Source: a virus. From it: a DNA stretch of 64,000 nt. A program made the translations under genes and the position numbers. Within the stretch, counting starts at the first letter, position 1, and each line of letters starts with the position of its first letter. Shown here piece by piece: positions 4,424 through 48,404 of this stretch. Under the pieces are notes generated by a model, which was given only the letters and a program-made list of their open reading frames with translations, was not told the DNA's origin and made no database searches. Where the stretch lies: IMG/VR virus record IMGVR_UViG_3300045988_060114. One strand, given 5' to 3'.

Positions 4424-4446
4424 TGTGGTAAACGGTTTCGTAGATG

Positions 4447-5016: not shown

Positions 5017-5432
5017 AGTTCACCATTTAAATAATTGTCGATTGCTTGGATAAATTCATCTATAGAGCGGACGATGATATACTTGCCACCATGTCGTTCT
5101 ACTTCGTATTGGAATACCTTCTGTTCGGGTTCCTGCTGTCCTTTGGGTGTCTTGTTTTCTATGCAGAGGAAACCGTACTGAGAGGTGCGCTTCAGGAGCA
5201 GCATATCAGATACTCCTGCCTTCATGCCTTCTTCTTTGAGCCATGCGGCTTGTTGAGAAGTTCGCTTGCCACCGTTAGGAACGGCAAAGAAGACACCTTC
5301 AAGGTCAGGATATACCCCACGGATATACCTGACCTCTGCGGCTTGCAAGTTGTGCTCATCATAAGATGAACGCTTGCGTATCTTCTTGCCTTCCTGCTGT
5401 AGCTTTGCCTTGATTTCAGCGTAGCTTGCCAT
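5013..5432 (-). CDS. VRR-NUC domain nuclease
   Basis: FFAVPNGGKRTSQQAAWLKEEGMKAGVSDMLLL...CIENKTPKG matches the VRR-NUC PD-(D/E)xK pattern (PNGG...G.pDl...ElK). Confidence 0.65.
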   Translation of the reverse strand: MASYAEIKAKLQQEGKKIRKRSSYDEHNLQAAEVRYIRGVYPDLEGVFFAVPNGGKRTSQQAAWLKEEGMKAGVSDMLLLKRTSQYGFLCIENKTPKGQQEPEQKVFQYEVERHGGKYIIVRSIDEFIQAIDNYLNGEL

Positions 5433-6208: not shown

Positions 6209-6209
6209 A

Positions 6210-6647
6210 CTAACTATAATTTTGTAAAATGTTATTAAACTCGTCTTCTGTAATACCATTAGCCATGAGAATGGTTAGGATGGTATCAAGACATCTACTA
6301 TATACTTCATTGAAGGCTGGCTCATCCATCTTGGCGAAGGAGATAGACTTGGCTCTTTCTAGGAACTTCTGTCCGTTGAGGTCGTAGAGCGGTTCGCTGA
6401 ATCCTGATGTTATCAGAAGCTGCTCACGGAATGTGTCTATTGAGCGGAGATTGATGCGCTGCTGCTCTGTGAGACTATCCCATGCTGCTCTGATAAGGGC
6501 GAAGAACTTACGATGGAACTTTACGTTGCGTGGTCGGACGATATTCGCCTTGACGATGGAACCAACCTTTATCTTTTTCATTTCCTCGTAATCATCATCC
6601 GTGTATGGGCGAAGACCAGTGGAGGTTCTTACTAGATGGATTTCCAT
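6210..6647 (-). CDS. DUF1367-like phage protein
   Basis: The RPRNVKFHRKFFALIRAAWD segment resembles the DUF1367 family as I recall it. Confidence 0.4.
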   Translation of the reverse strand: MEIHLVRTSTGLRPYTDDDYEEMKKIKVGSIVKANIVRPRNVKFHRKFFALIRAAWDSLTEQQRINLRSIDTFREQLLITSGFSEPLYDLNGQKFLERAKSISFAKMDEPAFNEVYSRCLDTILTILMANGITEDEFNNILQNYS

Positions 6648-6664
6648 ACCTTATATATTAATGT

Positions 6665-7144
6665 TTAGAATGGGAGACCACTTTTCTGCTGACCACCTGC
6701 ATATTGAGCATTTTGCTGAATAGGTTGACCGCTTGCATTAACCTGAGGAGGAAAAGTCTGCATCTGCTGCTGAATAGGTGCTGGCTGCGGTGGATAGTTG
6801 GCTGCTTGCTGCTGAGGAACCTGACCTATTTGGCTCTGCATCATCTGACCCTGCTGCTGGGCATTTGGTCGCTCCACCTTCCAGCAGTCCAACTGGTTGA
6901 ACCAACGTCCGTCTCTAGACTGATGTGCCTTCAATCCGATGTTTGCGGTGATGATTTCACCAATCTGAATGCCGAACTGCTGAATCTTGTCAGAACCGTA
7001 AACTTGGATAACGGCTCTTGAAGGGTACTGCTGATTCAGTTCCTCAATAACATACTCTTGGGAACTCCATTGGGTTCCGTTTTGGGAAGTTCCCATTTGA
7101 ACTTGCCCTGCTGCAATAATCTTGCCTGTAAACTTTACATTCAT
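6665..7144 (-). CDS. DUF3127 OB-fold SSB-like protein with Q/P-rich tail ending GLPF
   Basis: The N-terminal 95 aa (FTGKIIA...QEYVIEE..QYPSRAVIQVYGSDKIQQF...DGRWFNQLDCWKVE) fits the Bacteroidota DUF3127 pattern. It sits in a recombination module. Confidence 0.6.
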   Translation of the reverse strand: MNVKFTGKIIAAGQVQMGTSQNGTQWSSQEYVIEELNQQYPSRAVIQVYGSDKIQQFGIQIGEIITANIGLKAHQSRDGRWFNQLDCWKVERPNAQQQGQMMQSQIGQVPQQQAANYPPQPAPIQQQMQTFPPQVNASGQPIQQNAQYAGGQQKSGLPF

Positions 7145-7152
7145 ATTGTTAC

Positions 7153-8076
7153 TTAATTAAGTTTGATTCTTATTGACGGCTTGGAGATACTGACTTTTGT
7201 TAATTTCTCGTAAGCATTTGGATATTTCTCTTTGAAGAGTTTCATGTCGAGCGTTCTCTTAGTGGTGCTATCAACATAAGAGTAAGAACCGATATTGGTC
7301 TTGATGGATTTCTGTTTGTTGGCTTCCATCATCTTCATCATCTGCTCCTTCAAATCATCCTGCTTAATCTTTAGGGCATCCATACGAGCGGAAACTAGTC
7401 TGTACTCCTGCTCTAGTGCTGAAAACTGCTCAGGAACCTCTACCTTATATTGATAGTCGGTATCATCAGCGAGATAAGCGTTGATTAAATCGTCAATCTG
7501 GTAATCAGCTACCCTAGGTAGTGGCTGGAACTTGCTCTGTCCGTTCTTGAACCACATACAAACAATCTCCTTCACCTTCAAGTCTGGATTTTGCTCCTCG
7601 AACCATTTGGCATAGATGGAAAGTTGGAGCGATACATTGTCGTAGTGGAGGGTGGCTGTGGTCTTGTAATCTACCAGATAGATGTTTCCTTCCTTGTCGG
7701 CAAAGATTCCATCAATGGCAGAAGCGAAGTTCTCGCCATCTGTAACAAGATACTCGGATGCTACATAGTGTAAATCGTATGCGACTAACATACTATGGAA
7801 GGCAAGAAGCTCTTCCGTAGGGTTCGGGTATTGTTTGAGGTCTGCATCGAAGATGGAACAGAAGGTTTCAAACGTATTGTGGATAAGACCTCCTCGCTCT
7901 GCTGCCTTCATCAATACCGATTCAGGAATGTTCTTGTAGGTGTCGGGGAATGCTTTCTTGATGAGCGTTCCAGTTACACCTTTCAGTTCCTTCTTGCCAA
8001 TGAAGTACTGATGAGACTCCTCAATGAATGTGACCTTTGGCACATTCAGGGTTATTTTCTTTGTTTCTGCTGTCAT
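7153..8076 (-). CDS. PD-(D/E)XK (YqaJ/RecE-like) recombination exonuclease
   Basis: AIDGIFADKEGNIYLVDYKTT...QLSIY gives the D...D-x-K...QxxxY motifs. The gene is adjacent to an annealing protein. Confidence 0.6.
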   Translation of the reverse strand: MTAETKKITLNVPKVTFIEESHQYFIGKKELKGVTGTLIKKAFPDTYKNIPESVLMKAAERGGLIHNTFETFCSIFDADLKQYPNPTEELLAFHSMLVAYDLHYVASEYLVTDGENFASAIDGIFADKEGNIYLVDYKTTATLHYDNVSLQLSIYAKWFEEQNPDLKVKEIVCMWFKNGQSKFQPLPRVADYQIDDLINAYLADDTDYQYKVEVPEQFSALEQEYRLVSARMDALKIKQDDLKEQMMKMMEANKQKSIKTNIGSYSYVDSTTKRTLDMKLFKEKYPNAYEKLTKVSISKPSIRIKLN

Positions 8077-8077
8077 A

Positions 8078-8773
8078 TTATTGTAATCCTAATTCTTTCT
8101 TCTTAGCTGATACTGCTTGCATGAACTGAGGGCTGGCGGTGAGCGGCTTGTATGTCTGAACAACCCATACCAGATTATCCTTGTTGACACATCTGCTAAG
8201 GTATGCCAATCCTTCGTTCAAGTCATTGGTGTGATACTGGGGTGTTGCTGGCTGCTGGGCGGCTTGTGCTGTCTGAGCGGTTGGATGCTGAGTCTGTGTC
8301 TGCTGCTGCGCTGCTCTACTATCCTGAGCACCATACTTACTATCAATGTCTATGATGTCCTTTCCTGCCTCGAAATAAACGTCTGCTGCTACACCAAGTG
8401 CCTTCATTGCAACCGACAAGGCATCTGTGAGTGCCATCTTGTAGCATTCATCAGATACGTATGCACCCTTGCTTTCCATTGATACTTCTGACGAACCTCC
8501 TGTTCCTTGGATGGCATCTGACCATTCTCCGTTCACCTTGATAAAGAGGTCGATGTTGCAATAGGCTTTTACCTCACTTCCGAAAGTCTCTGTCCACTGC
8601 TTGGTGATTACGTACTTCCAACCGATTCCGCACACACCAAACTGCTCTGTCATAGCCTTGATGCGCCACATTGGGTTGATGTCGTGTTTTCCTCTAAGTC
8701 TTCCTGACTGAATTTGTCTGAGTGCCTGTTGAGGAACGACTTTGAGTTTGTTGTAATAATCTAAATTACCCAT
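8078..8773 (-). CDS. single-strand annealing protein (Rad52/Sak- or ERF-like, family unresolved)
   Basis: Position next to the exonuclease and SSB-like genes. Conserved-looking core GIGWKY...DALSVAMKALGVAADVY and a Q-rich C-terminus. Confidence 0.5.
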   Translation of the reverse strand: MGNLDYYNKLKVVPQQALRQIQSGRLRGKHDINPMWRIKAMTEQFGVCGIGWKYVITKQWTETFGSEVKAYCNIDLFIKVNGEWSDAIQGTGGSSEVSMESKGAYVSDECYKMALTDALSVAMKALGVAADVYFEAGKDIIDIDSKYGAQDSRAAQQQTQTQHPTAQTAQAAQQPATPQYHTNDLNEGLAYLSRCVNKDNLVWVVQTYKPLTASPQFMQAVSAKKKELGLQ

Positions 8774-8794
8774 ATCTTTTATGTATTTAAGTTG

Positions 8795-8911
8795 TTATTG
8801 ATACTTCCATTCATAGTGGCTACATCGGTAGCCACCATCTGGGTTACGTTTCGGATTGTCACACATGGTCAAGAAGAGACAATCGTGACAACTGCTTGCT
8901 TTATATCTCAT
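8795..8911 (-). CDS. small Cys-rich peptide (38 aa)
   Basis: Sub-threshold ORF MRYKASSCHDCLFLTMCDNPKRNPDGGYRCSHYEWKYQ, directly upstream of the annealing gene. Confidence 0.25.
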   Translation of the reverse strand: MRYKASSCHDCLFLTMCDNPKRNPDGGYRCSHYEWKYQ

Positions 8912-8935
8912 ATTGTATAGTTTAAATGTTCAAAT

Positions 8936-8968
8936 TAAAAACCCCACGATTCTCACGAATGGTGGGGG
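8936..8968 (-). terminator. rho-independent terminator (minus strand)
   Basis: CCCCAC (8942-8947) pairs with GTGGGG (8962-8967). On the minus strand the hairpin is followed by a U-run (A-run at 8936-8941 on plus). Confidence 0.55.
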
Positions 8969-9533
8969 CGAGTGTTCGTTATTTTAATATAACCTGAGCG
9001 GTCGCTACCGTCTCACAATGTAATTTGTATGGTAAATTTCAACATGTCAATATTTGCAATTTCCTTTAGAAAAGGAGGGGCTGCTAAATGTAATGAGAAA
9101 ACAGCCACCTCCGTGGAGCGACATCTATACAATCTTGCCGGATGCTGACTCGCTCCTTGGTTCTCTTCTGCATTTATGGAGGCTTAGAACTCCCAGCACT
9201 AGTAATCGCACATATTGTGATATATTTACTTTATGAATCAGAACTATTTATCAACTATTAAAAAAAGAAATTCAACTTGCTGGCTGCATTAGAACCGATT
9301 TGTAGTTGTGCGCTTCTACCTTTCTGCTACCTTATCTTTAAGGGTCACGGCATGAGGTCTGCATCTTCACAAGTGAACTCCAAGCGTTCCAAATTCCACC
9401 CAGTGGGTGTATGTATTAGCTTGCCACTTCCACGTCTAAGCATCATCTGTGGTTAATGATGCTCCTTTTGGGTACGTGTACCTCTCTAGGAAGGTTTATC
9501 CTATCCGATATAAAGCCTTGGAATCGGGCTATA

Positions 9534-9611
9534 TGGGGCGCAAGGTGGGACTCGAACCAACGACCTCGAAGGGGATGAACCTTCATACTCTACCAACTGA
9601 GTTACTTGCGC
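9534..9611 (-). tRNA. tRNA-like gene, anticodon CAU, atypical
   Basis: Hand-folded cloverleaf: acceptor GCGCAAG/CTTGCGC, D-arm ACTC-AGTTGGTA-GAGT, T-arm GTTGG-TTCGAGT-CCCAC and an encoded CCA. Oddities are a 6-bp anticodon stem (or a 9-nt loop), C at position 37 and a U-C mismatch in the T-stem. Confidence 0.6.
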
Positions 9612-9915
9612 TGGCTAATCAACAATTTATACTAACTTAAAAACATGAGTAAAAAATGACTATATTTATCACTTGTGGAGACTGGGAGTAGCAAACTCCA
9701 AAAAACCTCTGCTATTTACGAATGAAAATTCGATGGCTGAAACATTACAAGACTTAACAAATTAATAATTTAATACTAAATTCAACTTGTGAGGTTCAAT
9801 CTCCTTATATCTACTTGCCTACCTCCTTGAAGTAGGAGCGCATTTCCTTTATTAAGAGGACAAACATGGCTATAGATGCCACGAACATAATATCTGCGAA
9901 CATAAGTTTATCTGT

Positions 9916-10197
9916 TTAATGGGTTACACAATAGGCTGCTGCCTCTGATTCTATCTCTGCCATGCTCTTGCTGCGGTTCTGCATCATCCAGTCTTCCAAC
10001 TCACTCTTCTTGAAGTAGAGTAGGTTGATATTTGGCTTGTAGCAGGGGAGTATGTGCTTTCTGACGTTTTCCCTTACTCCTCGAACCGTCATGCCTAGTA
10101 TGATTGCAGCTTCCTTGATGTTGAGCACATTTTTTGCTGCTATCAGCGAATACTGCTCGATGCGGTCTAGCTGCTCCTTAATCTCTGGGTCTATCAT
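9916..10197 (-). CDS. excisionase-type helix-turn-helix protein
   Basis: LNIKEAAIILGMTVRGVRENVRK...YFKKSELEDWM is typical of HTH_17/Xis-like proteins. The ATG at 10197 abuts the upstream stop, and an alternative start lies at 10257. Confidence 0.55.
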   Translation of the reverse strand: MIDPEIKEQLDRIEQYSLIAAKNVLNIKEAAIILGMTVRGVRENVRKHILPCYKPNINLLYFKKSELEDWMMQNRSKSMAEIESEAAAYCVTH

Positions 10198-11290: not shown

Positions 11291-11350
11291 ATCTTAATTT
11301 TTTGTTGTAATTTTGCTTTTAATATATAGCAACTTACTTGTTTACGGTTG

Positions 11351-11398
11351 CAAAGGTACTCTTTTCCGAGTAAACTACCAAACAATTTCTCGAAAAAG
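11351..11398 (-). promoter_or_regulatory. early leftward promoter box plus imperfect inverted repeat (putative operator)
   Basis: The reverse complement of 11351-11358 is TACCTTTG (TAnnTTTG). CTTTTCCGAG (11361-11370) and CTCGAAAAAG (11389-11398) form a 10-bp inverted repeat with one mismatch. Confidence 0.45.
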
Positions 11399-11445
11399 AT
11401 TAGTCCTTTAAGATTAATTAGTTAATGTTTATAAATGTAAATTGT

Positions 11446-13873: not shown

Positions 13874-15037
13874 CTAGTCCTTGTCGAAGAACTTATCAAT
13901 GAGTCCCATTGCATCATTCTTCTTCTTATCTATAATCTTGGCATAAATCTCGGTGGTGGCGATTCTTGTATGCCCCATCAACTTACTGGTGGTGTAGATG
14001 TCTGCACCCAGTGTAAGCATCATGGTTCCAAAGGTGTGCCTTGCAGTATGGAAGGTAATGTCCTTCTTGATACCAGCGTTCGCTGCCCAAACCTTGATAT
14101 GAGTGAGAACCGTCTGTTCGCATCCCGTACCATTGAAGATGAACTCGTTTCCGCCCTGCTCAGGCAACCATTCTATAGCCTTGCCTGACAGATTGTATGA
14201 AACCATCTTGTTGGTCTTCTTCTGTATAATAGATAGATGCCATGACTTAGTTCCATCCTCATTGGTTACTTCCCTGATGTCTGACCATTTCAGTCTCCTG
14301 ATGTCGGAGATACGCAAACCACAAAAGCAGGAGAACATGAATGCCTGCTTGATAACTGGAACCTTGCATTCTGTTTCAGCCAGTTTCTTCACCTCCTCAA
14401 TATCCAAGAAAACCCTGCTGGTTTCGGGTTTCTTCGGCTTCTCTCGCTTATCCACCTCGCTGAATGGATTCTTGTATATCATCCCACCTTTCACGGCTCT
14501 GCTGAGCATTTCATTGAGGTGATTGCAATACATAATCTTGGTGTAGCTGGAAAGCGGCTCTCCATTGCTCTTCTTGGTGTTGTTCAGGAACTCAATGAAT
14601 CCCACACAATACTTCTTGTCAATACTGGATAGCTTGATATTATCTCCCTTGTAGGCGATGAGTTGCTTTCGGGCGCATTCTATCTGCGCTGCAATTCTGC
14701 TTGGAGACTGCGATGTCTTCATCTTATAAGTCTTGAAGTTGTCTATCCAGTCCATGAGCTTCATCTTGCTCTTGACGGACATGATACCTGAAATGCTGTT
14801 CTTGATGTCCAGTACTCTCTGAGCCTTGATAACATTGGCGGTAGCCATTGTTTCTGCATTCTTTCTTCTTGCCTCTGCCTTACCTCTACCCACCTCTGGT
14901 ACGATGTAGAGTTTCAGAAACTCATAGGTTCTCTTGCCATCCTTGTAGATGTCTAGATAGACACTCTTGTTTCCGTTGGCAAGTTCCTTGAATCTGATAG
15001 TGACAGGTTCTTTTTCGATTGTTTTCTTCCTTCCCAT
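13874..15037 (-). CDS. int: tyrosine site-specific integrase
   Basis: GLRISDIRRLKW...HTARHTFGTMML...LMGHTRIATTEIYAKI gives the R..H-x-x-R..H..Y catalytic set. The N-terminal SAM-like domain is typical of Bacteroides integrases. ATG at 15037. Confidence 0.85.
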   Translation of the reverse strand: MGRKKTIEKEPVTIRFKELANGNKSVYLDIYKDGKRTYEFLKLYIVPEVGRGKAEARRKNAETMATANVIKAQRVLDIKNSISGIMSVKSKMKLMDWIDNFKTYKMKTSQSPSRIAAQIECARKQLIAYKGDNIKLSSIDKKYCVGFIEFLNNTKKSNGEPLSSYTKIMYCNHLNEMLSRAVKGGMIYKNPFSEVDKREKPKKPETSRVFLDIEEVKKLAETECKVPVIKQAFMFSCFCGLRISDIRRLKWSDIREVTNEDGTKSWHLSIIQKKTNKMVSYNLSGKAIEWLPEQGGNEFIFNGTGCEQTVLTHIKVWAANAGIKKDITFHTARHTFGTMMLTLGADIYTTSKLMGHTRIATTEIYAKIIDKKKNDAMGLIDKFFDKD

Positions 15038-15144
15038 AAGCCTTTCTTTTATAAATCTGCTGCAAAGATAAGCATTTTTTTTGTTACTCGCAAGTTTTGG
15101 GTAACAAAATAGTAACAAAACTAACACGTATCTGATGTATAGGT

Positions 15145-15220
15145 AATGTATATCTAGCTTTCGGAAAATTAATTTTCCGAAAAGGCAAAGTGCTGATAAC
15201 TAAAAGTTTAGATATACATT
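15145..15220. promoter_or_regulatory. nested inverted repeats upstream of int (operator or att arm sites)
   Basis: A 24-bp perfect palindrome TTTCGGAAAATTAATTTTCCGAAA (15159-15182) is flanked by AATGTATATCTA (15145-15156) and its reverse complement (15209-15220). A third copy of the 12-mer is at 15488-15499. Confidence 0.6.
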
Positions 15221-15568
15221 TGATATACATTAGGTAACAGATGGGTTAAGGTGTGCTATTTACTATCTTTATTATTCCAATATGGTTTATTCTGTCAGTT
15301 AAATATCTGATTTGTAGGTGGTTGTGAGTTTCTTTGTTTTTAGCGAGTAACAAAATAGCAACAATGAAGTGTTAATCTTTGCAAAGTAACTAACTTGCCC
15401 ACAACAAAGATAAGAATTAAATCTTATTCACAATTAATTTTCAAAAAGACTTTAACTTAGATTAACATTGTGTTATTTCGTATATCTAATGTATATCTAT
15501 TTCCCTAAAAATCCAATTTCATTTACATTCAACACTTTTTAGCATTTGGTGGTTTCAGAAAAAGCTTC

Positions 15569-15689
15569 TATCTTTGCATCGTCAAAGTTGCGATTGACAC
15601 ATACAGATTTGTCCTCCTTTAAGGCTTTAAGCCTACGAGATATGGAATCCCTTGGTTAGCGCAACATGACCTTGGGATTCCTCTTTTTT
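15569..15689 (+). ncRNA. candidate ~105 nt small RNA (promoter box to terminator-like hairpin)
   Basis: TATCTTTG at 15569-15576. GGAATCCC (15644-15651) pairs with GGGATTCC (15674-15681) and is followed by TCTTTTTT. No ORF lies between them. Confidence 0.25.
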
Positions 15690-16037
15690 ATCCCAGAGTT
15701 TTTGACAAGACATACGAGGTTCAATCCGTGCAGTCCTCTTCGGAGTTATCGACCGATATATAAAACTGCTCAGTCTAGTAGAATATATCCATGTAGGTAA
15801 ACCCTGCTCTGTCCCATCCATTGACAACAGGTGCCCATCTGCCGAAAGGCACTACCCCTACATAGATGAATCAAACAAAGTGGGTAACTTTGTTCTATGT
15901 AGGCTTTGGTAGGGAATAATCTACTGCTTATAGTAGTTGATAATTAAATAAAGATTTTCCTTGCTGCTGCCCTCTCCCTTTGGGGATGGGTAAAGAATGG
16001 ATAGTATATATAGTTGAACAAGTAAAAATTTTGGCTT

Positions 16038-16828: not shown

Positions 16829-17320
16829 ATGGGTGAAAATTTATGTAGTATGCCAAAATATATTGGCACGAAAGTAGTTCAGGCAAAGCCTATGCCTTTA
16901 AAAGATGCACAGTATGTGCTAGGTAGAGAAATTAAGCCCGCAACCGATGAGGAAGATGGTTATCTTGTAGTTTATAATGATGGTTATCGCTCATGGTCTC
17001 CTAAGAGTGTATTTGAAGAAGCTTACCATGTGCTTAGTGCTATGAACTTCGGTAATGCAATTAGTGTTTTGAAGTCTGGTTTTCCTGTAAGAAGAGCAAA
17101 TTGGAGCGGAAACAAATTCCTTTACTTTGTTCCATCGGCAAGCTATTCTGCTATGACAGATATAGCAAAGTCTATAGCTGATGAAGATGGAATGGTTCTT
17201 TACAAACCGTATATTGCCATTCGGTGCGAAGATGGCAGTGTCGGTTTCTATACTCCAACTCAATGCGATGTCTTAGCTGAGGACTGGGAGGTTGTAGAAG
17301 AAAAGTTCTATGGTAAGTAA
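16829..17320 (+). CDS. DUF2829 (Tad2-like) domain protein with N-terminal extension
   Basis: The C-terminal half (from 17042) reads MNFGNAISVLKSGFPVRRANWSGNKFLYF...PYIAIRCEDGSVGFYTPTQCDVLAEDWEVV. This fits the DUF2829 pattern (F..A...lk.G..v.R..W......i...t.dG....w.p...DlLAeDWe). Confidence 0.65.
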   Translation: MGENLCSMPKYIGTKVVQAKPMPLKDAQYVLGREIKPATDEEDGYLVVYNDGYRSWSPKSVFEEAYHVLSAMNFGNAISVLKSGFPVRRANWSGNKFLYFVPSASYSAMTDIAKSIADEDGMVLYKPYIAIRCEDGSVGFYTPTQCDVLAEDWEVVEEKFYGK

Positions 17321-17714: not shown

Positions 17715-18023
17715 TTAACCTTCCTCTTCTGACATCTGTCTTAACTTCTCGGTGAGTGCATTGTGAACCTCACGCTTATCGTCAAGAGTGACGGTCTGTA
17801 ACTTAGGACAATTAAACTCCAGTATCTTGATAAAGGTTGATACCTTATCCTTAGGCTCGCACTTATACCAAGCTTCCATGAAATCATCCCAAGCCTCTCT
17901 GGAAAAATCGGCACAGAGTTCACGAAACTCCTTCTTGATAGGAGATTCATATCCCTTCTGCTTTCCTCCTGTTTTTGCTCGACCTTTCTCGAACTGACCT
18001 CTAGAATTTCTTTCTGTTGCCAT
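17715..18023 (-). CDS. small late protein, DUF5681/small-terminase-like N-terminus (tentative)
   Basis: N-terminal RNSRGQFEKGRAKTGGKQKG resembles the basic motif seen in small terminase-like phage proteins. The gene is driven by a late-type promoter. Confidence 0.3.
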   Translation of the reverse strand: MATERNSRGQFEKGRAKTGGKQKGYESPIKKEFRELCADFSREAWDDFMEAWYKCEPKDKVSTFIKILEFNCPKLQTVTLDDKREVHNALTEKLRQMSEEEG

Positions 18024-18046: not shown

Positions 18047-18089
18047 CAAAGGTACTAATTATTATTTATATTCGAGTTTTATCCGTTAA
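18047..18089 (-). promoter_or_regulatory. late promoter (TTAACGGATAA-N24-TACCTTTG)
   Basis: Read on the minus strand, the element starts at 18089 and the box at 18054, a spacing of 35 nt. Confidence 0.65.
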
Positions 18090-18112
18090 TAATTGAATCA
18101 GAAGCACGAGTA

Positions 18113-18155
18113 TTAACGGATAAAATATGATTTTCGGCTAGTATTATTAACTTTG
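18113..18155 (+). promoter_or_regulatory. late promoter (TTAACGGATAA-N24-TAACTTTG) of the giant-protein operon
   Basis: Element at 18113-18123, box at 18148-18155, then ATTATTAATAAT. The ATG follows at 18186. Confidence 0.65.
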
Positions 18156-18185
18156 CCACATTATTAATAATTAAAATACATATAT

Positions 18186-18854
18186 ATGTTAGGAGCGTTA
18201 ATTGGGGCAGGTCTTGGACTTGCAAGCAGTATCGCTGGTGGTGTAGCTAACCGCAAGGCGAGACGTAAGCAGGAGCAGATGATAGCCCAGCAACAGAAAG
18301 AAAATCAGGCATGGTATGATAGAAAGTATAATGAAGACCCTACCAAACGTGCCGATACCGTTCGATTGCTCACTCAAATGCAGGAGCAAATCAAGAACAG
18401 AAACAAGGCTGCGAAGGGTAGACAAGCGGTGATGGGTGGTACAGAAGACTCCACTACTGCTGTGAAGGAGGCGAACAACAAGACTCTTGCTGATACCACC
18501 TCACAGATTGTAGCTGCAAATGATGCCCGAAAGGATAACATCGAGCAGCAGTATATGAACAGAAAGAACCAGTTACAGAACCAGCAGATGGGTATTGAAG
18601 CTGAGAAGGCTGCTGATACTGCCAATGCGGTTGCTGGTGTGGCTGGTACTGCTGCCAATATCGCTGCAACTATTGATAGTGGTGTTGGAGCAAAGAAGGC
18701 TCCGAACATGAATGTGACTCAGGAGCAGTTGGATGGTATCGCCAAGAATCCAAATGATGTTCTTGGCTTGAAGGCTAAAACTACTAGGTTGCCATCGCAA
18801 GGTGAACTGAATAGCCTTGGAGTGAAATTGCAAGAACAGAAAGTTAAAGCATAG
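18186..18854 (+). CDS. Gly/Ala-rich pilot/ejection-like virion protein (putative)
   Basis: N-terminal GALIGAGLGLASSIAGG, a Q/N-rich coiled middle and a second Gly/Ala-rich stretch. First gene of the giant-protein operon. Confidence 0.45.
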   Translation: MLGALIGAGLGLASSIAGGVANRKARRKQEQMIAQQQKENQAWYDRKYNEDPTKRADTVRLLTQMQEQIKNRNKAAKGRQAVMGGTEDSTTAVKEANNKTLADTTSQIVAANDARKDNIEQQYMNRKNQLQNQQMGIEAEKAADTANAVAGVAGTAANIAATIDSGVGAKKAPNMNVTQEQLDGIAKNPNDVLGLKAKTTRLPSQGELNSLGVKLQEQKVKA

Positions 18855-18857
18855 CCT

Positions 18858-20027
18858 ATGAAAGCATCAGATATGTTACGACACAATAATGGCTTGAAGA
18901 CTACACAGAGTGTTCTCAACAAGCAGCAGAGTGGTGTGGATGCGGCACAGAAGGTGGCACAGACTCAGGCTCCAGTCTTCACCCAGCAGCAACTTGATGC
19001 GGCTGGCAAGAAGGTTGACCAGATGAATGCTGCCACTCCTCAGAATGAAACACCTACGATGAAGGCGGCTAGAGAGAAGACTATCGCTACTCAACAAGCC
19101 ATCGCCAATGGTGTAGATGTGAATCAGGGTGCGCCAAGTGATGAGGAGGATAAACCATCTGTACCTATCGTGAAGAAGGAGGAACCGAAACCTCAGCCCA
19201 AGCAGCTATCTTACGCTGATATGTATAAGATGCTGAATCCTGAGCATCAGGAGACGGCTGAGCAGAGGGCTAACAGAGAGAAGAAAGAACGTACCAAGGC
19301 TCGTATCGCTGCCTTGGGTGATGGTCTCCGTGCGCTATCCAATATCTACTTCGCTACCAAAGGTGCAAAGGTGGTACACAATCCTGAGTCGGATATGACT
19401 AAGGCGGTGAATAAACGCAAGGCATTTATGGATGAGCAGAGGGAAAAGAATCGGGCATCATGGCTGGCTGGGTATCAGAGGGCACTTGCTCTTGATGAGG
19501 AAGCGAGAAAGAATAACCTGACTCTAGCTGAGCAGATGAGGTATCACGATATGCAGAACGACCTCAACAAGGTGAAGGCTGAACAAGGGCAGCAGAGAAT
19601 TGACCAAGGAAACAGAAGACTTGACTTGTCGAAAATGAAGTATGATACTGATGCTGATTACAAAAAGTCTATATTGGCTATCAAGAAGGCTCTGGCTGAT
19701 GGGCAAATCTCTCATTGGCAAGCACAGGAGGCTATCCAGCGTATCAATGCTGAGACTGGTCGAACCCGTGCCAACAAGTCGGGTAGTAGCAGTTCAAGAA
19801 AGGGTTCTTACTCTGGAGAGGTTGATGAGTATATGGATTTGATGGAGAAAGACCCTGAGGGTATGGCTGAGGCTGCAAAGGAAGTAAAGAAAATGGGCTA
19901 CTCTCCTAAGACGGCAGCAGGAAAGAAGGCTCAGAAGATTGCTTATCAGCGTAAGCATGGTAAGACTAAACAGAACCATACATCATCCAACAATGGTGGA
20001 AAGAAGAAGACTGGTGTAAACTGGTAA
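18858..20027 (+). CDS. Lys/Gln-rich coiled-coil protein
   Basis: 389 aa, low complexity, lying between the pilot-like gene and the giant ORF. Confidence 0.5.
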   Translation: MKASDMLRHNNGLKTTQSVLNKQQSGVDAAQKVAQTQAPVFTQQQLDAAGKKVDQMNAATPQNETPTMKAAREKTIATQQAIANGVDVNQGAPSDEEDKPSVPIVKKEEPKPQPKQLSYADMYKMLNPEHQETAEQRANREKKERTKARIAALGDGLRALSNIYFATKGAKVVHNPESDMTKAVNKRKAFMDEQREKNRASWLAGYQRALALDEEARKNNLTLAEQMRYHDMQNDLNKVKAEQGQQRIDQGNRRLDLSKMKYDTDADYKKSILAIKKALADGQISHWQAQEAIQRINAETGRTRANKSGSSSSRKGSYSGEVDEYMDLMEKDPEGMAEAAKEVKKMGYSPKTAAGKKAQKIAYQRKHGKTKQNHTSSNNGGKKKTGVNW

Positions 20028-20057
20028 CAGAATTGGTAACAAACAAATATATATATT

Positions 20058-23000
20058 ATGGCAGAAAGACCATTATACACTTTATACAAGAATCTGAAAG
20101 CACAGAACTATGATGTGCCTGATGATTACAATAAGTTTGAGAGCGCCCTGACCAGAGAAGGAAAGGGCGGTGCAGATAACAGACACGCTATCTATGAGAA
20201 CTTGAAGGCTCAGAACTTTGATGTTCCTGATACTTATGAGCGTTTCTATTCTGCACTTTTTGAACCTCGTAGTAAGACTTCATCTAGAGCGAAGGGCGGT
20301 AGTGTTCCTTTGAGTGCTGCTGACCGTGCTCGTTTCAATGCTAGAACTGCGGAAATCTTGTCTAGTGCTAATAATGCGGTAAGACAAGCAAAGCGAAACA
20401 TTCAGACCAAACTGGGGCAAGCAAAGAAGTTTGATGGTGGCAGGGTTACTCAACGTCTAAAGAATCCTTTGCAGAATCAGAATGTACAGAAGAATGAGTT
20501 CAACTATAATGCCACAACTGGCAAGACTGGAACCTATACAACATCTGATGGAGTGGAGTTCGATAACGAGTATGATGCTACCCAGTATCAGAATAAGTTG
20601 GACGAGCAGGGGCAGCAGTATATCAATGCTGTAAATGCTGGTGAGATACCGTCTGCTTTAGATGTGCGTGACCAGAATGGCAACTACGACTTGCAGGAGA
20701 ATATTGGTAAGAATGGAACCTATCTCACTGAGGAGGGTGCTCAAAAGCAGTTTGATAAGAAACTGGCTGATGCCTATGCTCGCAAGAAGGAGATAGAAGC
20801 TGCTATAGCGGAAGACAATCGTCAGCATGGCAATCCTCTGCTCTCTTATGGTGCTAGTATTGGTTCAAGTAACGGAAGAAATGCTGAGCAGAGTGACTAT
20901 AGAAATAAGTTGGCAACCTCTCTATCTCTTGTTACTCAGCAGATTGGTGCGCTTGAAGCGGTGAAACAATACCCTACAAGTAGCTGGGGTGAGGATGCCT
21001 TGAAGGCTCTTGACAATACTGCCTTTACTGCCAAGACTTGGGATTTCGGTCTGACTGATTTTGCTACCATGGGGCAGATGGAACGTATCAAGACAAAGAT
21101 GGATAACAACATTCCTCTCTCTGGTTCTGATAAGATGCTCTTGAAGAGTAAACTGGGTGCGGATGCTGCTGCGGCTCTCGAAGATGAGAAGATGGGTAAT
21201 ATCTATCGCTGGACGAAGATTGCAGGGCAGAGTCTCCCATTTATGGCTGACTTCTTCCTGACTGGTGGCTATGGTGGTATTACCAAGGGCATCAGTCGTG
21301 GAGCCTTGAAGATTGCTGCTAAGTCTGGAATGGGCAAGGTGAGTGCTGCAATTTTGAAGAACACTGGTATCGTGGCTGGCGATGTAATCGGCTCGTATGC
21401 GATGGCTGGAACTGAACAGGCATTGAAGACTGGTGCAGACATCATGCAGCGACATCTAGGTAATCTGTATCAGGATGAGAAGGGCGATTATAAGTTCGGT
21501 ACATTTGACGAAAACGGAAACCTCCTGCATGAAGGTGGTGAGTCTATGGGTACTGCTCTCTATAAGGGGCTGACCTCTGCCATGGTGGAGAACTACACAG
21601 AGAAGTTGTTTGGTCACAACTATGGTATCAAGAAGGGTGCTGTCAACTTCATGGAGAAACATGGTATGAATGCTTCTGCTGAGTTCTTCAAGAATATCGG
21701 CAAGAGTGGTTGGTACACCAATTCTAAGAAGTGGATGGAGAAGTTTGGCATCAATGGTTTCGCTGAGGAAGTGATGGAGGAGGAAATTGGTATTCCTCTT
21801 CATGCACTGCTGGATGGTGATAGTAAGGTGAGCGACCTTCTTGATGCTAGACAACAACTTGACATTATTGGTGGTATGGCTATCTCTGTTGGTTCTATGT
21901 ATGCGATGGGTGCTGGCTCCCGACCAGTGAAGGGTGTGTACAATCGTGCTCAGTACTACCGATTCAGACACAAGTTGAACGTGGCTGATAGTGATGCACA
22001 GAACCTTATTGGCGATAACTGGGCAGACATCAAGGATAAGATTGACAATGCAACCAACGAGCAGATGGGTAGTGTACTAGCTGGCATTCTCCGTCAGAGA
22101 GATACAATGACCAAGGAACAGATTAATGCTGCTGTTAACTATGGTGTGAACCTGATGAAGATGCGTGGCTACAATATTGCCAAGACTTCTGAAATGAATG
22201 CAAGGGAGATTACCAATGAGCCTACAACTCCTGAGGAACAGCATCAAACGGATATTGATAACGCTTACTCTGAGGGGCATGATGCTGATGATGCAGACAA
22301 ACATGATATTCAGATTCAGCAGGAAGACCAGATGAAGACTCTTGCAGCAGCATTGGGTATCTCTGAGCAGCAGCTATCTGTTATGAGTGATGAGGAGTTG
22401 GAATCCTTAACTGGAAAGGATGATAAACTTGACCAAGCTATCTATGACTACCAGTTGTCTTCTGCTCGCTACCAAGGTGTGGTTGATGATGCACAAGACA
22501 AGGTTGACCTTGCTGCTCATCAGGCAGAACAACGTGTTGATATGTACACAGACCAGAGCCGTGGCTCAGTCCGTAACGCTACCATTAAGGCATCTGGAGG
22601 ACTGGAAGACTATGGTGTCTATATTATCAGTGGCAATATCGCTACTCATGATGATGGTACTATTGATGTAAGCAATAGTGATGATATGATTCTCTATTAT
22701 GACCCGACAACGAATAGTGTAGAACACGCTGATGCATTGATGTTCGCTGAACTGGGTGAGGAACTGCCTGCTGATGATGTGAAGGCTCAGGCGGTAGCTG
22801 ATGCAAAAGAGGTTGCTATCAAAGAAGTGGCTGGCATCATTGACGGAACAGTTGATGTTGGCTCCCAGTTCTTGGTGACTGATGCTGACGGAACGGAACA
22901 TACTTATGAGGTGCTTGCTGATTATGGTGATGGTACTGCTGCTATTTCTATTGATGGTAATGTGGTAGAGAATCCATATTCGCTTGCCGATTTGCAACAG

Positions 23001-26000
23001 ATGAAAGACTTGGAAGACAAGAAGAGATTGGAAACTGCTAAGGCTCAGCGTGAGCAGATAGAGAAGGAACGTGCTGAGCAGCAGAATCAGGAGACAGAAC
23101 AGACTCAACCTTCATTTGATTTCAATCAGATTCTTAATGACAATGGAAATGTTGTCATTGTTGATGTGCTGGATAAGGATGGCAATACTAAATATCCTGA
23201 CTCTAGATTGTTCCTTATTCGTGATACTGGTGCCAAGGCTAAGGTAGTTGAGTTGAAGAGTGATGGCACTATTGTTCCTCATGCTGTGAGCAAGAAGAAT
23301 GTGAGCATAATTACTTCAATGTCGCTTGATGAGTACAAGCAGGCTATGGCTGAATCCTCAATGATAGAGGATAATAGTGGAGAGAATAGAGGTGAGATAG
23401 AGGTGGAGACTCCGACAATAGAGGGCGAGACTGCTGCTCCTGCTGAGGAGACTGCTGCTCCTGAATCTGCTGAGACTCCTGCAACTGAACAGACTCCTGC
23501 TGCTCCTTCCATTACTCTTGAAGATGGAACCATCGTGCCTATGCTGGAGGATGGCAATCCTGACTTCACGAAGCTGACTGCCGCACAGACTGCTGAGTTG
23601 TATGACTCCCAGTTTGGTGAGGATGCAGATAGTATCGTATCTGGATATGTGTCTGATGCAAAGAAGGCACTCGACAAGGCTAGCAACATGACCGTGAAGG
23701 GTAAGACTTTCGTGGAACAGAAGGCTGCAAAGGATGCAAAGGAGAAGGCTATTGCTGATGCTCAGGCGGCTTATGACTCTGCTATCGCTATCCGTGATGC
23801 TTACAATGAGCGACAACTTGCCAAGGTGGAAGATACTGCTGAGGGTAGAAAGGAACTCATTGAGAAGGCAAGAAGAAAGTTTGCTCGCTTGAAGAGTGCA
23901 GTGAAGAATGATGCTGAGGCTGTAGCACAACTATATAAGGAGACTGTAGGCAGCTTGCTACATCGTCTGTATGATGGCACTGGCATTGACGTGACAGATA
24001 CGATTCCGCTTACTGCTGAGGAGTATGTGGCTAGTAATCTCGGTGCTCACTCTCTCAACTATGAGGGTACTGAGACAAGCAAAGGTGTTAAGCAAGAGAC
24101 TGGATTGAGTAGAGAAGACTTTGCCAAGACCCAGTTGCTCGCTGCTGATGGCAAGGGTACTACTATTGACAACCTCGTACATAGCTTGTGGGAGAATCGT
24201 CCATCTAACCTTGATTCACTCGACACTCAGAATATTCGCAATGCCTTGCTCAGCATAATCACTAGCGGTTTCAAGGCATCGGAAGCAAGAAATTACATTG
24301 AAAATCTCCGTATCGCTCAGGCTGAGAATATCCTTGAAGAGCAGAAGAAGGCGGCTGATAACGCTGCATTCGCTGAGGAGAAGACTGGGGAAGAGAACTC
24401 TGATGAGGAGAATGATGAGGAGAATGAGAAGATAAATGAGCAGACAAATGAGAATATAAATGCTCCTGAGGTTCCTGAGGATGCAACGGATGATACTCCT
24501 TTAGGCGCACAGCGTGATGAATCAGACCTTCCTTTCTCTGCTAAGGAGAATGGCAAGCAGCAGACAACTGCCGAGCGTGCTGCTGATGTAGAGAAGAATA
24601 AGGTGGATGATATGAAGGTCGTTGACAATATCGTGGGTGAAAAGACTCGAAAGGCTTTCGAGAGACTGGCTAAGATGATGGGTGCTGCCATTCAGTGGCA
24701 GTACTCTGACAAGTTGGGTAACGGCTGGATTCAGGAGACCAAGGATGCTGATGGCAACGTTCATCGTACCATCTTCATTACTCTTGACTCTTCTATCACG
24801 GAAGGTGCTCAGTTTATCTTCGGTCATGAAATGACTCACCAAATCAAGAATCTGAACCCTGCTGCATACAATGAGTTGACTCAGCTTGTGCTTGATACCT
24901 ATGGCTCTGATGCCTTCGACAAGGCGGTAGGTGAGACCATGCAAAGATATTCTGATGCTGGATTCTCTGGACGTGCTAGAGATTACTATGCTGAGGAGGT
25001 TGTTGCTGATGCGGTAGGTGAAATGATTCGTGACCTCAACTTGGCTCATACTCTCGCTATGAAGATGTCTCATCCTCTACTCGCTGCTATCCATGAGATA
25101 TTGCAGAAGATTAAGTTGGCATTCTTTGGCACTGAGTATAGCGATGTGACCAAGAACATCATCCGCTCCATTGAACAAGCCTACGTGAAGACTGCCAATG
25201 GGGAGGTGACAAACTCCGAGACTGGTGAAGATGTTTCCTTCTCTCTCCGTCAAAAGCCTGAACCTAAGAAGAAGGGCATCGGCTACAAGGTGTTCGTATT
25301 GAAGGATGGCAAACTCTATCCACCTATGGTAGCGAACCCTAATGGTGCTGCTACTCCAGTTGGTGTGTGGCTCGATGCTGATGCGGCTCCTATTGCAGGA
25401 GAAAGCAAGACTGGAAGACCTCAGGTTAAGCAGGGCGGCAAGGGAACACAAGGCGGTAGCGGTAAGTTAGCCTATAGACCAGGCTGGCATCTTGGTGTAG
25501 TGCCTTATGCTATCCAGTTTAACCGCAAGGATGCTGAGGGCAACAAGACTCTCTTCCCTAAGAACTTTGTCTTCGCTGAGGTGGAGTATGCTGCTGACGT
25601 TGATTATCAGGAGGAAGCTCGCCAAGAGGGTATCAATCCATCGGGCAAGTATCAGCATTCACTCGCTGGCTTGAAACATCTGCCTACTGATGGTTTCTAT
25701 ATGTATCGTACAAACCCGAACCCTGAGACTGACCCTTGGGTGATTACTGGTGCGATGAAGGTGAACCGTATCTTGACCAGAGCAGAGCAAGCGGAACTTG
25801 TGAAGAATGCTGGTCGTGAACCTCAGCAGATTCAGGAGGGCGATATTGTTACTGATGATGTTGTGAACAGCATCAATCAGGAGATAGCTGATGCTCCTAA
25901 GTTCTCGTTAAAGGTATATCATGGTAGCGGTGCTGACTTTACAGAGTTTGACTTCGACCACATGGGTGAGGGTGCTGGCTCCCAAGTATTCGGTTGGGGT

Positions 26001-29000
26001 GGCTACGTTACTTCATCGGAAGAGATAGGAAAAAGCTATGCTAATCTTTCAAGAGATTATGGCAGCAGAAACATATATAAGGGCGATATTCCGTTGACCA
26101 AGTTGGAAAAGGCTGCTTTGAGTTCATTCATTGAGAACAACAAGAATCATGAAGGGACATTCAAGGAAGGTGTTGCTGGTTCTATCGAGCGACAAAAGGC
26201 ATTGATTGCTAAGCATCCGAACAATCCTCTTTCTAATAGTATCAAGAAGAGAATTGAAGTATTGGAGGGTGCTATGCCTAAACTGGATAGTATCTCTTGG
26301 GATGATTTCGTTCCAAGTGGAAAGAACCTCTATGAGGTAGATATTCCTGAGGATAATGGCAGTAACTATCTGGAATGGGAGAAGAAACCATCTGATGAGG
26401 TTGCAACAAAGATAATTGAAGGTCTTTATGGCTTGGATGCTAAGACCCTTGATGATATGGCATCAAAGGATATTGTGTTCAGAACTCTGTTGTATGATTA
26501 CATCAAGAATGCAGACAAGGAGCAGATGATTCCACTCCTTGTGAAGACTCATGCTCTAACTAGGGAAACTACCTATGACAATGGAAATGTTGAGGATGAT
26601 ATACGATTTGTGTACAATCGTTTATCTAGATGGATGGGCAGTCAAAAGGCTGCAAGCCAGTTCCTATCTTCTCTTGGTTTTACTGGCATCAAGTACCCTG
26701 CTGGAACAATCATGGGCGGTGTTGAAGGAGACGAAATCAACTATGTTATCTTCAAACCTGAGGATATGAAGATTACAGAACATACCAAGTTCTCCATCAA
26801 GACCTATCATGGCTCCCAAGCATCATTTGACAAGTTCGACCACTCCTTTATGGGTAGCGGTGAAGGTGCTCAGGCTTACGGCTGGGGTACTTATGTGAGC
26901 GAAGTGGAAGGTATCGCCAAGGCTTATGCCAAGGCAAATGCAAAAAAGAATGCGCCTTCAAGACTGATGTATCAAGGTAAGCCTATGACGTATAAAACTC
27001 CATCAATTATCTATCAAGTTGCCCTTGATATGGATAAGTTTAATATTTCCGCAAAAGAGGCTATATCAAAGATGATAGATGCTGATGAGAAGAAACTTGC
27101 ATCCGTTGGCGACACCCCATTTGCGAAGATGAAAGCCAAACAAGTTCAAGATGAGTTGAAAGTTTTGAAAGATTTGAATCCTTCTGACTTCAAGATTAAT
27201 GAGGACTATGATACTGTCGCACAGGATTTGATAGATACAAAGTCTGGTCTTGATTTATTGGAGGATGAGTTGAAAGATGCAAAATCCTATGTAGATTTGT
27301 ACCAATCAAGACTTGATGAGGCTAAGGAAGAACTTTCAAAGGCAAAGGAAAGTGGCACTGGTTTAGGTGTTGATATGTATGAATCTGATGTTGAGTATTA
27401 TAGCGAACAGGTTAAAAGATATAAGCAGAGTATAAAAACTAAGGAAAGTGACATCAAAGATGTAAAAACTAAGGTTGACGCTTTGCAGAAGAAGTTGGAT
27501 TCCATGGAGAAACCACGCAACCTCTACTCTGTTGATATTCCTGATGATACTGGTCGCAACTACATCGGCTGGGATGAGCCTTTAGGTGCTGCTAAGATTA
27601 TGCGTCTGCCAAAGGTATTCAAGGCTGATGGCTGGGAGTACAAGAAGGTTGGTATGTATGATACTTACAAGATTGATGGTAACGAACATGAGGTTTGGCT
27701 TGAACCAACTTTGACTACTGGCAAGGAACTTTATAGAGATTTGACGAATGCCCTAGGTAGCGACAAGGCTGCAAGCGAATTTCTCTCCAAGGCTGGCTTT
27801 GTCGGTGTGAAGGTTATCGCTCAGCGTAATACTGGCGGCAACAAGGAAGGCAAGATGAACTATGTTATCTTTGATGAGAACAATGCTCAGATTACCAGTC
27901 ATACCAAGTTCTCGTTGAAGAAAGATGGCTTGACTCCTGAGATAGCAAATACTCCTGTAAATATTGTTGATGCTGATGAGGAACATGGCTTTAAGAACTA
28001 TGCTGAGGCAAGAGAATGGGCTAAGAAGAATATTGTTAGAACTTACAATGATGAAGAAACTGGTGGCAAGGGTGAGATTAATATCAGTAATACTGCTGTT
28101 GGTAAGTATTTGTCTGAAAAGGCAGTTAAGAAGAGTGCAAACAAAGATGTACACATGAGCGTTTTGAAGGTCTTGCCTTCTATACTTCGTGAGAGTGTAG
28201 ATGCTATTCAGCATGTTGACCGTAACAAGGTAGGAAATGAACGTAGTGAGGATTTTGGTGTCAATCCTGATGTTATGATACATCGTTGTTATGGTGCGGT
28301 GAATATAGGCGATAAGGTCTATGGTGTAAAGATTACTTTGAAAGAGAATGTAAGAACACACGAAAAAACAAAGCTATATAGCTATGAAGCAACAAAAATA
28401 GAGCTGCTGGACGGTCAAAGTGGAGACGTAGCTATGACCTCTCCCCGCAATTCCAACAACTCTATTACGGTTGCAAAGATAATAAAAGGTTTTGAAACTA
28501 CCAAGAAAAATGGCGAAAAGTTTTCATTGAAGGATGAAAAAACTCTTGCAGGAGTGCATAACATTACTGAGGAGAAACTGAGAAAGGCTTTGAAGCTGGG
28601 TGGATTTGCCAATCCTTCTTTGGCTGTGATTGATACCAACAAGACTGCTCACGACAACTTTGGAGAGATTTCCTTCATCGCTCCTTCTGCCCTTTTGGAT
28701 AAGCGTACTGGCAATACTGGCGGTACTTGGATAACTGATGCCTACACTCAACGTTATCCTTCCGTAGAGCGAGAAATGAGTGAAAAAGGGTATCGGAAGT
28801 TTGAAGACTGGGTTGATAGCCTTGATTACCCAAGTGTAGCTAAGGCTGAGATTGAGAGACAGGCAAAGGATGCCCTGAGCGACAATAATGCTCCTGCTTG
28901 GGAGTTGATGTACTTGAAGGAAAAGGGTATTGATATTAAGGAGTATGATTCTAGAATTGATTATCGCTGGAAAGAGATTATCAGTGACCATCCTACTGCT

Positions 29001-43174: not shown

Positions 43175-43197
43175 AATTTATAATATTTATATTGTTA

Positions 43198-46281: not shown

Positions 46282-46301
46282 ATTATATAATCTTTATACG
46301 T

Positions 46302-47462: not shown

Positions 47463-47463
47463 A

Positions 47464-48378: not shown

Positions 48379-48404
48379 ATTTGATACACATTATTAATAA
48401 TACG

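Follow-up and report, generated by a model that had tools for sequence, protein, structure and literature searches.

Virion and lysis operons are preceded by a fixed-distance upstream element

The DNA analysed here, a 64,000-nucleotide stretch of IMG/VR virus record IMGVR_UViG_3300045988_060114 that we refer to as the window, is that of a temperate phage with a P22-type portal. The structural genes annotated in it encode a terminase, the portal, the major capsid protein (MCP), a tail fibre, an endolysin and a T7-gp14-like internal virion protein. Five exact copies of the 11-mer TTAACGGATAA were found in the window, each separated by a 24-nucleotide (nt) gap from a TAnnTTTG box, the −7 element of Bacteroidota promoters, and each standing in front of a transcription unit (P1 to P5). 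An earlier note on the same DNA had listed these copies and their boxes (at 18054 on the minus strand, 18148, 48412 on the minus strand, 51914 and 58450), had placed the first base of every copy exactly 35 nt before its box, and had assigned the five units to operons. Positions and offset (5/5) were confirmed, as were the operons by annotation of the open reading frames (ORFs), on which all operon assignments given here rest.

P1 and P2 are divergent. The P1 element (18079–18089) and its box TACCTTTG (18047–18054), both on the minus strand, precede a small monocistronic DUF5681-like gene of 309 nt (17715–18023, minus strand), whose ATG follows the first base of the box by 31 nt. Its product of 102 amino acids (aa) is homologous to gp58 of phage BKO1-TP3 and gp71 of phage BF1-TP2, the latter annotated as DUF5681. 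On the plus strand, the P2 element (18113–18123) and box TAACTTTG (18148–18155) head an operon (18186–36353) for the T7-gp14-like internal virion protein, a 389-aa protein and a giant protein of 5431 aa. The giant protein, encoded by a single ORF (20058–36353, plus strand) and presumably ejected, has a BKO1-TP3 counterpart that is annotated as 'DarB-like antirestriction'.

P3 lies on the minus strand (element 48437–48447, box TATCTTTG at 48405–48412) and precedes the tail-fibre operon (42164–48378, minus strand), which encodes a 304-aa protein, the tail-fibre protein, a 1027-aa protein and a 336-aa protein. The plus-strand P4 element (51879–51889) and box TAATTTTG (51914–51921) stand before genes for a scaffold-like protein, the MCP, two small proteins, the portal and a 78-aa protein (51953–57856, plus strand). 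The P5 element (58415–58425, plus strand), with box TATCTTTG at 58450–58457 on the same strand, heads the lysis cassette and the virion genes downstream of it, i.e. genes for an 87-aa protein, the endolysin and conserved proteins of 152–196 aa (58488–61268, plus strand). The P5 element overlaps the TAA stop codon of ORF 57940–58425 and the other four copies are intergenic, as the earlier note had described.

The circular genome measures roughly 69 kb, and the window lacks about 5.6 kb of it between position 64000 and position 1. This was deduced from a close relative, the 68.5-kb IMG/VR contig L207, in which the missing stretch corresponds to positions 4206–9872. L207 carries a sixth promoter at 8572, TTAACAGATAA-N24-TATATTTG, followed by a 147-aa ORF and then an 886-aa ORF; the promoter is four bases before the ATG of the 147-aa ORF, and the unit is nearly leaderless. 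The distal part of the same unit lies in the window on the minus strand (61369–63872): ORF 62244–63872, truncated at the edge of the window, encodes the C-terminal 542 aa of the ~886-aa protein, and a 290-aa ORF (61369–62241) comes after it. The count of five therefore stands for the window, and a sixth copy is found in the ~5.6 kb of the circular genome beyond it. All six downstream units are annotated as virion or lysis genes.

No additional copies of TTAACGGATAA with up to one mismatch are present in the window. A shuffle control gave 0.85 expected matches, and none of 100 shuffles reached five. When the composite TTAACGGATAA-N24-TANNTTTG was searched with up to three mismatches allowed, only the five window matches were recovered, all of them with 0 mismatches, against 0.14 expected. 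Sixty-eight TAnnTTTG boxes occur on the two strands of the window, and GATAA, the 3′ half of the element, stands at a 24-nt gap from just five of them.

Three of the late promoters share a second sequence, the palindrome ATTATTAATAAT, which begins 3–4 nt past the −7 box, in the predicted start or leader region. The three copies reported in the earlier note are exact (18160–18171, 48390–48401 and 58461–58472), and one more, at 48779–48790, has one mismatch (four matches versus 0.38 expected). The palindrome is kept in close relatives and absent from the BKO1-type clade introduced below; it may serve as a second regulatory site or belong to the leader.

Several further features lie next to these promoters. 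The P3 spacer (48406–48437, minus strand) contains a 14-pair imperfect hairpin over the −7 box, followed by a T-rich run; the hairpin is kept in relatives and may also terminate the terminase operon that lies upstream. Near P4, a terS-like ORF has its own box, TATATTTG, at 51839 on the minus strand (within 51818–51952), and the P4 element is located 39 nt upstream of this box in inverted orientation. The start of the terS-like ORF is probably at 51817 rather than 51913, judging from homologues of ~145 aa. A second related word, ATAACGATAA, occupies 51868–51877, one base 5′ of the P4 element. ORF 57940–58425, directly before the lysis promoter, is one of two DUF7841 paralogues and has its own TATCTTTG box at 57903; the other paralogue (39846–40274) belongs to an accessory cluster after the giant gene.

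Conservation of the element and of its gap in related phages

Homologous operons in about 240 related phage contigs have the unit in front of them; the 24-nt gap is invariant, and spacers and flanks vary. One sample, taken around TerL, consisted of 80 relatives with TerL proteins 87–100% identical (1.58 Mb). Of the 267 matches found there with up to one mismatch, 230 lie at the exact offset from a box; all 133 exact copies are among these, and the off-offset matches are inherited one-mismatch words within coding sequence. The homologous places of P3 are occupied in 72 of these 80 loci, and those of P4 and P5 in 73 each. Around the gp14-like gene, the minus copy of P1, with its 24-nt gap, is kept in 78 of 80 relatives and the plus copy of P2 in 79 of 80. 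At the scaffold promoter P4, the 11-mer and the box are invariant in relatives, and the upstream bases and the spacer change.

A wider sample comprised 156 loci from two deep clades, window-type and BKO1-type. Here GATAA is found at exactly −29 to −25 from the box in 272 of 4621 boxes, where 9.5 are expected. An equivalent site on the lysis-operon side of the 886-aa gene was present in nearly every one of the 156 loci that extends far enough. Relatives carry the tolerated variants TAAACGGATAA, TTAATGGATAA, TTAACTGATAA, TTAACAGATAA and TTAACGAATAA, so that the term 'invariant', used in the earlier note, applies inside the window and has to be relaxed outside it. Control by methylation through a phage C5-methyltransferase was also considered and is unlikely, because the single CpG of the element is lost in TTAACAGATAA, in TTAATGGATAA and in the whole BKO1-type clade.

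A search of the three isolated relatives BKO1-TP3, BS-TP4 and BF1-TP2 with TTAACGGATAA at up to two mismatches returned scattered coding matches only, and a fixed-offset 8-mer search of the same genomes found nothing. A related element was found by reading their homologous intergenic regions. BKO1-TP3 and BS-TP4 carry GTAAAAAGATAA, GGTAAAAGATAA or GGAAAAAGATAA in the geometry GATAA-N24-TAnnTT(T/C)G, and these units head the homologous giant-protein, scaffold/capsid and lysis operons. The site homologous to P2 reads GTAAAAAGATAA in both phages, the site homologous to P4 is also present, and the element consensus is (G/T)(T/A)AAA(A/G)GATAA. The arrangement in BF1-TP2 differs, with ATAACGATAAA and a 26-nt gap at one promoter, and this phage is best treated as being without the canonical unit. 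A very distant prophage (portal 44% and MCP 20% identical) has two exact TTAACGGATAA-N24-TAATTTTG units, one before the portal and one before the scaffold/capsid genes.

The divergent pair P1/P2 bears on the question of whether the element could be an operator. As stated in the earlier note, the two copies form a perfect 15-bp inverted repeat between divergent genes, TTTTATCCGTTAATA (18077–18091) and TATTAACGGATAAAA (18111–18125). Such a pair resembles a palindromic operator, and a sequence-specific, conserved site beside core promoters would suit a repressor that silences the late genes in the lysogen or early in infection. Both copies are present beside the gp14-like gene in 78/80 relatives, each with its own 24-nt gap, and the distance between them is 11, 14, 15, 16, 24 or 26 nt. 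The divergent copies would thus each work with their own box, in what amounts to a natural spacing experiment. Because the inter-copy distance varies from 11 to 26 nt and each 24-nt gap stays, the inverted repeat is a by-product of two divergent promoters and not a palindromic operator. A repressor would also have to act from a site that does not cover the core promoter but is upstream of it, in a fixed orientation and at a fixed gap to the −7 box. In addition, the CI/Cro switch region of the phage contains no copy of the element and carries its own, different inverted repeat. We therefore regard repression through this element as highly improbable.

Host assignment and restriction to the phage lineage

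The nearest isolated relatives are the Bacteroides phages BKO1-TP3, BS-TP4 and BF1-TP2, with MCP identities of 59, 59 and 43–46%, respectively; a near-identity DNA search of GenBank phages with the region gave no match. The nearest bacterial genomes, among the matches listed, are Segatella copri HDE04 and Prevotella metagenome-assembled genomes (MAGs), with protein identities of up to 93–100%. Close relatives with 87–100% protein identity are integrated in Segatella copri HDE04 (L198; NZ_CP152346.1, 1.472–1.480 Mb) and in Prevotella sp. UMGS1787 (L157 and L192). Because of these integrated relatives the host of the phage is probably Segatella/Prevotella, although the nearest isolated relatives infect Bacteroides.

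The composite pattern was then scanned over one genome each for 185,579 species (596 Gb), and at least 120 loci matched. Among the 120 matches listed, 22 loci encode homologues of proteins of this phage; they are mostly in Bacteroidales genomes or MAGs and have virion or lysis genes. The other listed matches are single occurrences over unrelated phyla, and about 70 chance matches are estimated for the 17 specified bases. Multi-copy or syntenic matches among those listed are found in prophages of this lineage only, and no host regulon is visible among them. As the matches listed are mostly chance singletons, the value of the scan is limited to assigning a host and to ruling out an obvious host regulon.

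These data allow a host-factor site to be weighed, i.e. a site read by a conserved Bacteroidales DNA-binding protein that ties the late genes to a host signal. The exact 11-mer and its gap recur in phages and prophages of Segatella/Prevotella, Phocaeicola, Porphyromonadaceae and other Bacteroidales despite deep protein divergence, as would be expected if the reader belonged to the hosts. However, the listed matches show no host regulon, with only 22/120 loci encoding phage-protein homologues, and the different 5′ half of the element in the BKO1-type clade tracks a phage protein subfamily (see below). A host reader thus seems quite unlikely to us. Conservation, the fixed gap, the restriction to one lineage and the absence from the CI/Cro switch all support the phage-specific late regulon that the earlier note had proposed.

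Position of the element relative to the promoter core and a proposed mechanism

The −7 element of Bacteroidota primary-sigma (sigma-ABfr) promoters is numbered T−12 A−11 .. T−8 T−7 T−6 G−5, and its consensus has been refined from TAnnTTTG to TAHHTTTG (PMC6847099). All five late boxes, plus the sixth box in L207, match the refined consensus. By the published numbering (PMC6847099), from which the position relative to the start site is inferred, the 11-mer spans −47 to −37 and GATAA −41 to −37, with the centre at about −42. The element is therefore directly upstream of the place of the −33 element and of sigma region 4. It is asymmetric and fixed in orientation, with an invariant GATAA and a variable 5′ half. 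By analogy with other promoters, −47 to −37 would be the classical site of an activator that touches RNA polymerase beside the −33/−35 region. The upstream word is not the canonical −33 TTTG, as the earlier note had recognised: none of the five 24-nt spacers begins with TTTG (their first bases are AACT, AATA, AGGA, AGTA and AGTG).

We consider it reasonably probable that TTAACGGATAA(A) is the specificity element of a phage late promoter class and that it is bound by a phage activator at about −42, acting on the host sigma-A holoenzyme. Each late unit would be a host primary-sigma promoter with a good TAHHTTTG box (T at −12) and no recognisable −33 TTTG, at which the host holoenzyme would be expected to start transcription about 5–8 nt past the box. 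A phage protein from an early operon would bind the asymmetric 11-mer in a fixed orientation and would recruit or stabilise host RNA polymerase in the fashion of a class II activator. Six dispersed operons would in this way be switched on together: the small DUF5681-like gene; the internal virion and giant proteins; the tail fibres; scaffold, capsid and portal; lysis; and the unit of the 147-aa and 886-aa genes. That the units are late, that the element activates rather than represses, and which protein reads it are all inferred.

Two observations weigh against this activator model. Bacteroidota promoters as a whole conserve the −33 element poorly (PMC6847099), so a missing TTTG is no proof of activator dependence and its absence carries little weight. 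A conserved host reader would also account for the retention of the exact 11-mer in phages whose hosts are Prevotellaceae, Bacteroidaceae and Porphyromonadaceae.

Most ORFs in the window and in the missing 5.6 kb were scanned against Pfam/PHROG; no sigma, MotA/AsiA, Mor/C, Ogr or Q domain was revealed in them, and remote homologues could escape the Pfam scans. This agrees with the statement in the earlier note that the factor is not identifiable in the window: neither a sigma-like nor a known late-activator domain was detected there, and the best candidate gene lies outside it. The same scans bear on sigma appropriation or an alternative sigma factor. In that case the 11-mer would stand in for a −35-type element, and its reader would be no conventional activator but either a host sigma remodelled by the phage, as T4 does with AsiA/MotA, or region 4 of a sigma encoded by the phage. 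The host-type −7 box without TTTG at −33, the asymmetry and fixed orientation of the element, which are those of promoter elements, and an extremely conserved small phage protein of the size of known sigma-binding phage proteins are all compatible with this explanation. The scanned ORFs, however, contain no Sigma70_r2/r4, MotA or AsiA domain. The usual gap between the −33 element and the −7 box is 19–21 nt, and the 24-nt gap sets the element 4–5 bp upstream of that place and ~12 bp upstream of the centre of the MotA box (−30). We judge this possibility unlikely; in part it overlaps with the activator model, since both invoke a phage factor at about −42.

The organisation of the operons is relevant to a further explanation, in which the element is the loading site of a Q-like antiterminator or processivity factor that allows read-through of very long operons such as the one with the 16-kb giant gene. 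Its placement at promoters in fixed register with the core element, the length of the operons and the availability of a small, highly conserved, uncharacterised phage protein agree with such a role. Q-type systems, on the other hand, rely on a single strong constitutive promoter, followed by a pause close to it and by a terminator; this phage has six dispersed promoters, among them that of the monocistronic 309-nt P1 gene and that of a nearly leaderless unit. In the one region scanned (47000–62000), terminator-like sites are not in excess (13 versus 9.9 in shuffles), and no Q family domain was found in the Pfam scans. An antitermination site is accordingly very unlikely.

A candidate reader encoded at the end of the early region

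The distal early genes of the missing stretch, as represented in L207, encode a YopX-like protein, a Thy1-like fragment, a 63-aa Cys-rich protein, a 98-aa protein and a 91-aa protein with a CxCxC..CxC pattern. The 98-aa protein (L207 8025–8321) belongs to an uncharacterised family of 78–103 aa (phrog_30965), which includes gp31 of BKO1-TP3, and its counterpart in the phage of the window falls within the 5.6 kb outside it. This family is the best candidate for the reader of the element, a tentative assignment made from position, phyletic spread and co-variation.

Apart from DNA-metabolism and late-promoter-driven genes, the gene for the 98-aa protein is the sole gene common to the window clade, BKO1-TP3 and BS-TP4, and for this reason we call it the last conserved early gene. 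The 98-aa protein is related to BKO1-TP3 gp31 and BS-TP4 gp29 with phmmer E-values of 2–4e-4 and with an hhalign probability of 90.7% (E 1.3e-6). Members of the family were found in 156/160 loci, always directly upstream of the 147-aa/886-aa unit. The candidate gene is the most conserved of its clade (median identity 99%, 77/80 loci). Between BKO1 sub-clades, its 886-aa neighbour is only 41–44% identical and thus far less conserved than the candidate. BF1-TP2 lacks the family and lacks the canonical element arrangement too. The subfamilies of the candidate go with different 5′ halves of the element: the WIN-type subfamily occurs with TTAACG, TAAACG, TTAACA or TTAATA at 199/205 sites, and the BKO-type subfamily with GTAAAA, GAAAAA, TAAAAG, TAAAAA or TAACAA at 67/67 sites. 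The family comprises 516 clusters, all of 78–113 aa and unnamed.

Other observations speak against the candidate, and with it against the activator model. The link between subfamily and element is confounded by phylogeny, amounts to two clades and one negative genome, and is correlative. The candidate has no recognisable DNA-binding domain and no Pfam match. Its AlphaFold model is of moderate confidence (pLDDT 73.8), a Foldseek search of the PDB and BFVD with this model gave no neighbour at E ≤ 0.001, and a sequence search of the PDB found nothing. A locus search with the family alignment recovered near-identical members only and did not reach distant lineages.

Four other proteins were considered as readers and rejected. 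The CI-like repressor has no copy of the element at its switch region; the 147-aa gene is itself driven by a late-type promoter; BKO1-TP3, BS-TP4 and BF1-TP2 all lack the 91-aa Cys-rich protein, which speaks against it as a universal reader; and the small divergent gene is DUF5681-like and late-promoter-driven. PDB sequence searches with the 91-aa and the 147-aa proteins were empty or insignificant.

It is possible, at a tentative level, that the 78–103-aa family represents a new kind of late activator or sigma-A co-opting factor for Bacteroidota RNA polymerase that reads (T/G)WAAMRGATAA at −42. If so, the family would define the late regulon of widespread temperate phages with a P22-type portal in gut Bacteroidales (Segatella/Prevotella, Bacteroides, Phocaeicola and Porphyromonadaceae).

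Lysogeny region and other features of the window

The CI-like/Cro-like switch (11291–11424) adjoins the genes for a Rha/KilAC antirepressor and for an excisionase-type HTH_17 protein (9916–10197). A tyrosine integrase is encoded at 13874–15037 on the minus strand. About 1 kb beside it (stretch 13874–16037) has few ORFs and six TAnnTTTG boxes and is a probable attP or regulatory region. Between this region and the late genes, ORF 16829–17320 (plus strand) encodes a Tad2-like (anti-Thoeris) domain (PF11195, E 4e-19).

Antisense to the giant gene, positions 28440–28530 (minus strand) repeat the leftward promoter-like site of the CI/Cro region (11320–11410, minus strand), TTGGTAGTTT ... TAnCTTTGCAACCGTAA, with equal spacing. 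ORFs 28415–28642 and 27753–28361, both on the minus strand, lie downstream of this copy, which may be an internal antisense promoter.

Significance and comparison with known systems

In the literature found, there is nothing on late-gene timing in temperate gut Bacteroidales phages and no description of the element; the paper on the closest isolates mentions no promoter element (PMC12694917). BS-TP4 was detected in 31% of 930 gut viromes (PMC12694917). The element gives a sequence-level definition of a late regulon for a prevalent phage lineage and, as GATAA-N24-TAHHTTTG, an annotation rule for late operons. It also yields a short list of candidate regulators for cultured phage-host pairs, which exist for BKO1-TP3 (with B. 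koreensis HM3) and for BS-TP4 (with B. salyersiae BG8), and potentially a phage-inducible pair of promoter and activator for Bacteroides/Prevotella genetic tools.

Class II activator sites include those of CRP or FNR at −41.5, lambda cI at PRM, Mu Mor at Pm and C at late promoters. The late promoters described here resemble them in that a −10-type element for the host sigma is present and a −35-type element is poor or absent. Their specific site, on the published numbering, would be centred near −42 and would abut the position of sigma region 4. They differ in the Bacteroidota −7 TAnnTTTG core and in the asymmetric 11–12-mer, which has an invariant GATAA and no clear dyad, and Pfam scans revealed no protein of the Mor/C, CRP or cI type. 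Phage Mu activates several dispersed late promoters through a small protein of its early or middle phase. The Mor site is dyad-symmetric and located at −43.5, and the late site of phage P2 is a TGT-N12-ACA dyad at about −55; the present element is asymmetric, and neither Mor nor Ogr gave a Pfam match. Phages P2 and P4, with their Ogr/Delta zinc-finger proteins, offer a likeness in their dispersed late operons, each with one conserved upstream site, and in a tiny activator whose gene closes the early region. The window clade likewise encodes the 91-aa Cys-rich protein directly before the sixth late promoter, but this protein is missing from BKO1-TP3 and BS-TP4, which keep the element, and from BF1-TP2.

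T4 middle promoters are similar in that a host −10-type element is combined with a phage upstream word, which takes the place of the −35 element and marks many promoters as one temporal class. In T4 the centre of the MotA box is at about −30, some 12 bp away from the −10 element, whereas the present element, on the published numbering, spans −47 to −37, with a 24-nt gap, and a MotA/AsiA homologue was not detected in the ORFs scanned. Lambdoid Q systems, in which a Q protein acts with a Q-binding element, a sigma-dependent pause and a downstream terminator, differ in their single strong late promoter, as opposed to six dispersed ones, and no Q domain was found in the scanned ORFs.

Within the Bacteroidota, RteC, Xis2c and Xis2d of CTnDOT are activators from a mobile element; they have binding sites upstream of Bacteroides promoters and switch on late transfer/excision operons, with RteC binding 50–70 nt upstream (PMC3809561). 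The window encodes an excisionase-type HTH_17 protein too, but sites and distances differ, and a homologue of this protein was not detected in BKO1-TP3 or BS-TP4. Taken by analogy, the architecture of the GATAA-N24-TAHHTTTG promoters is akin to that of activator-type late and middle promoters of phages, with a proposed mechanism of the same type, and it would be the first activator-type architecture described in a phage on the −33/−7 promoter of this phylum.

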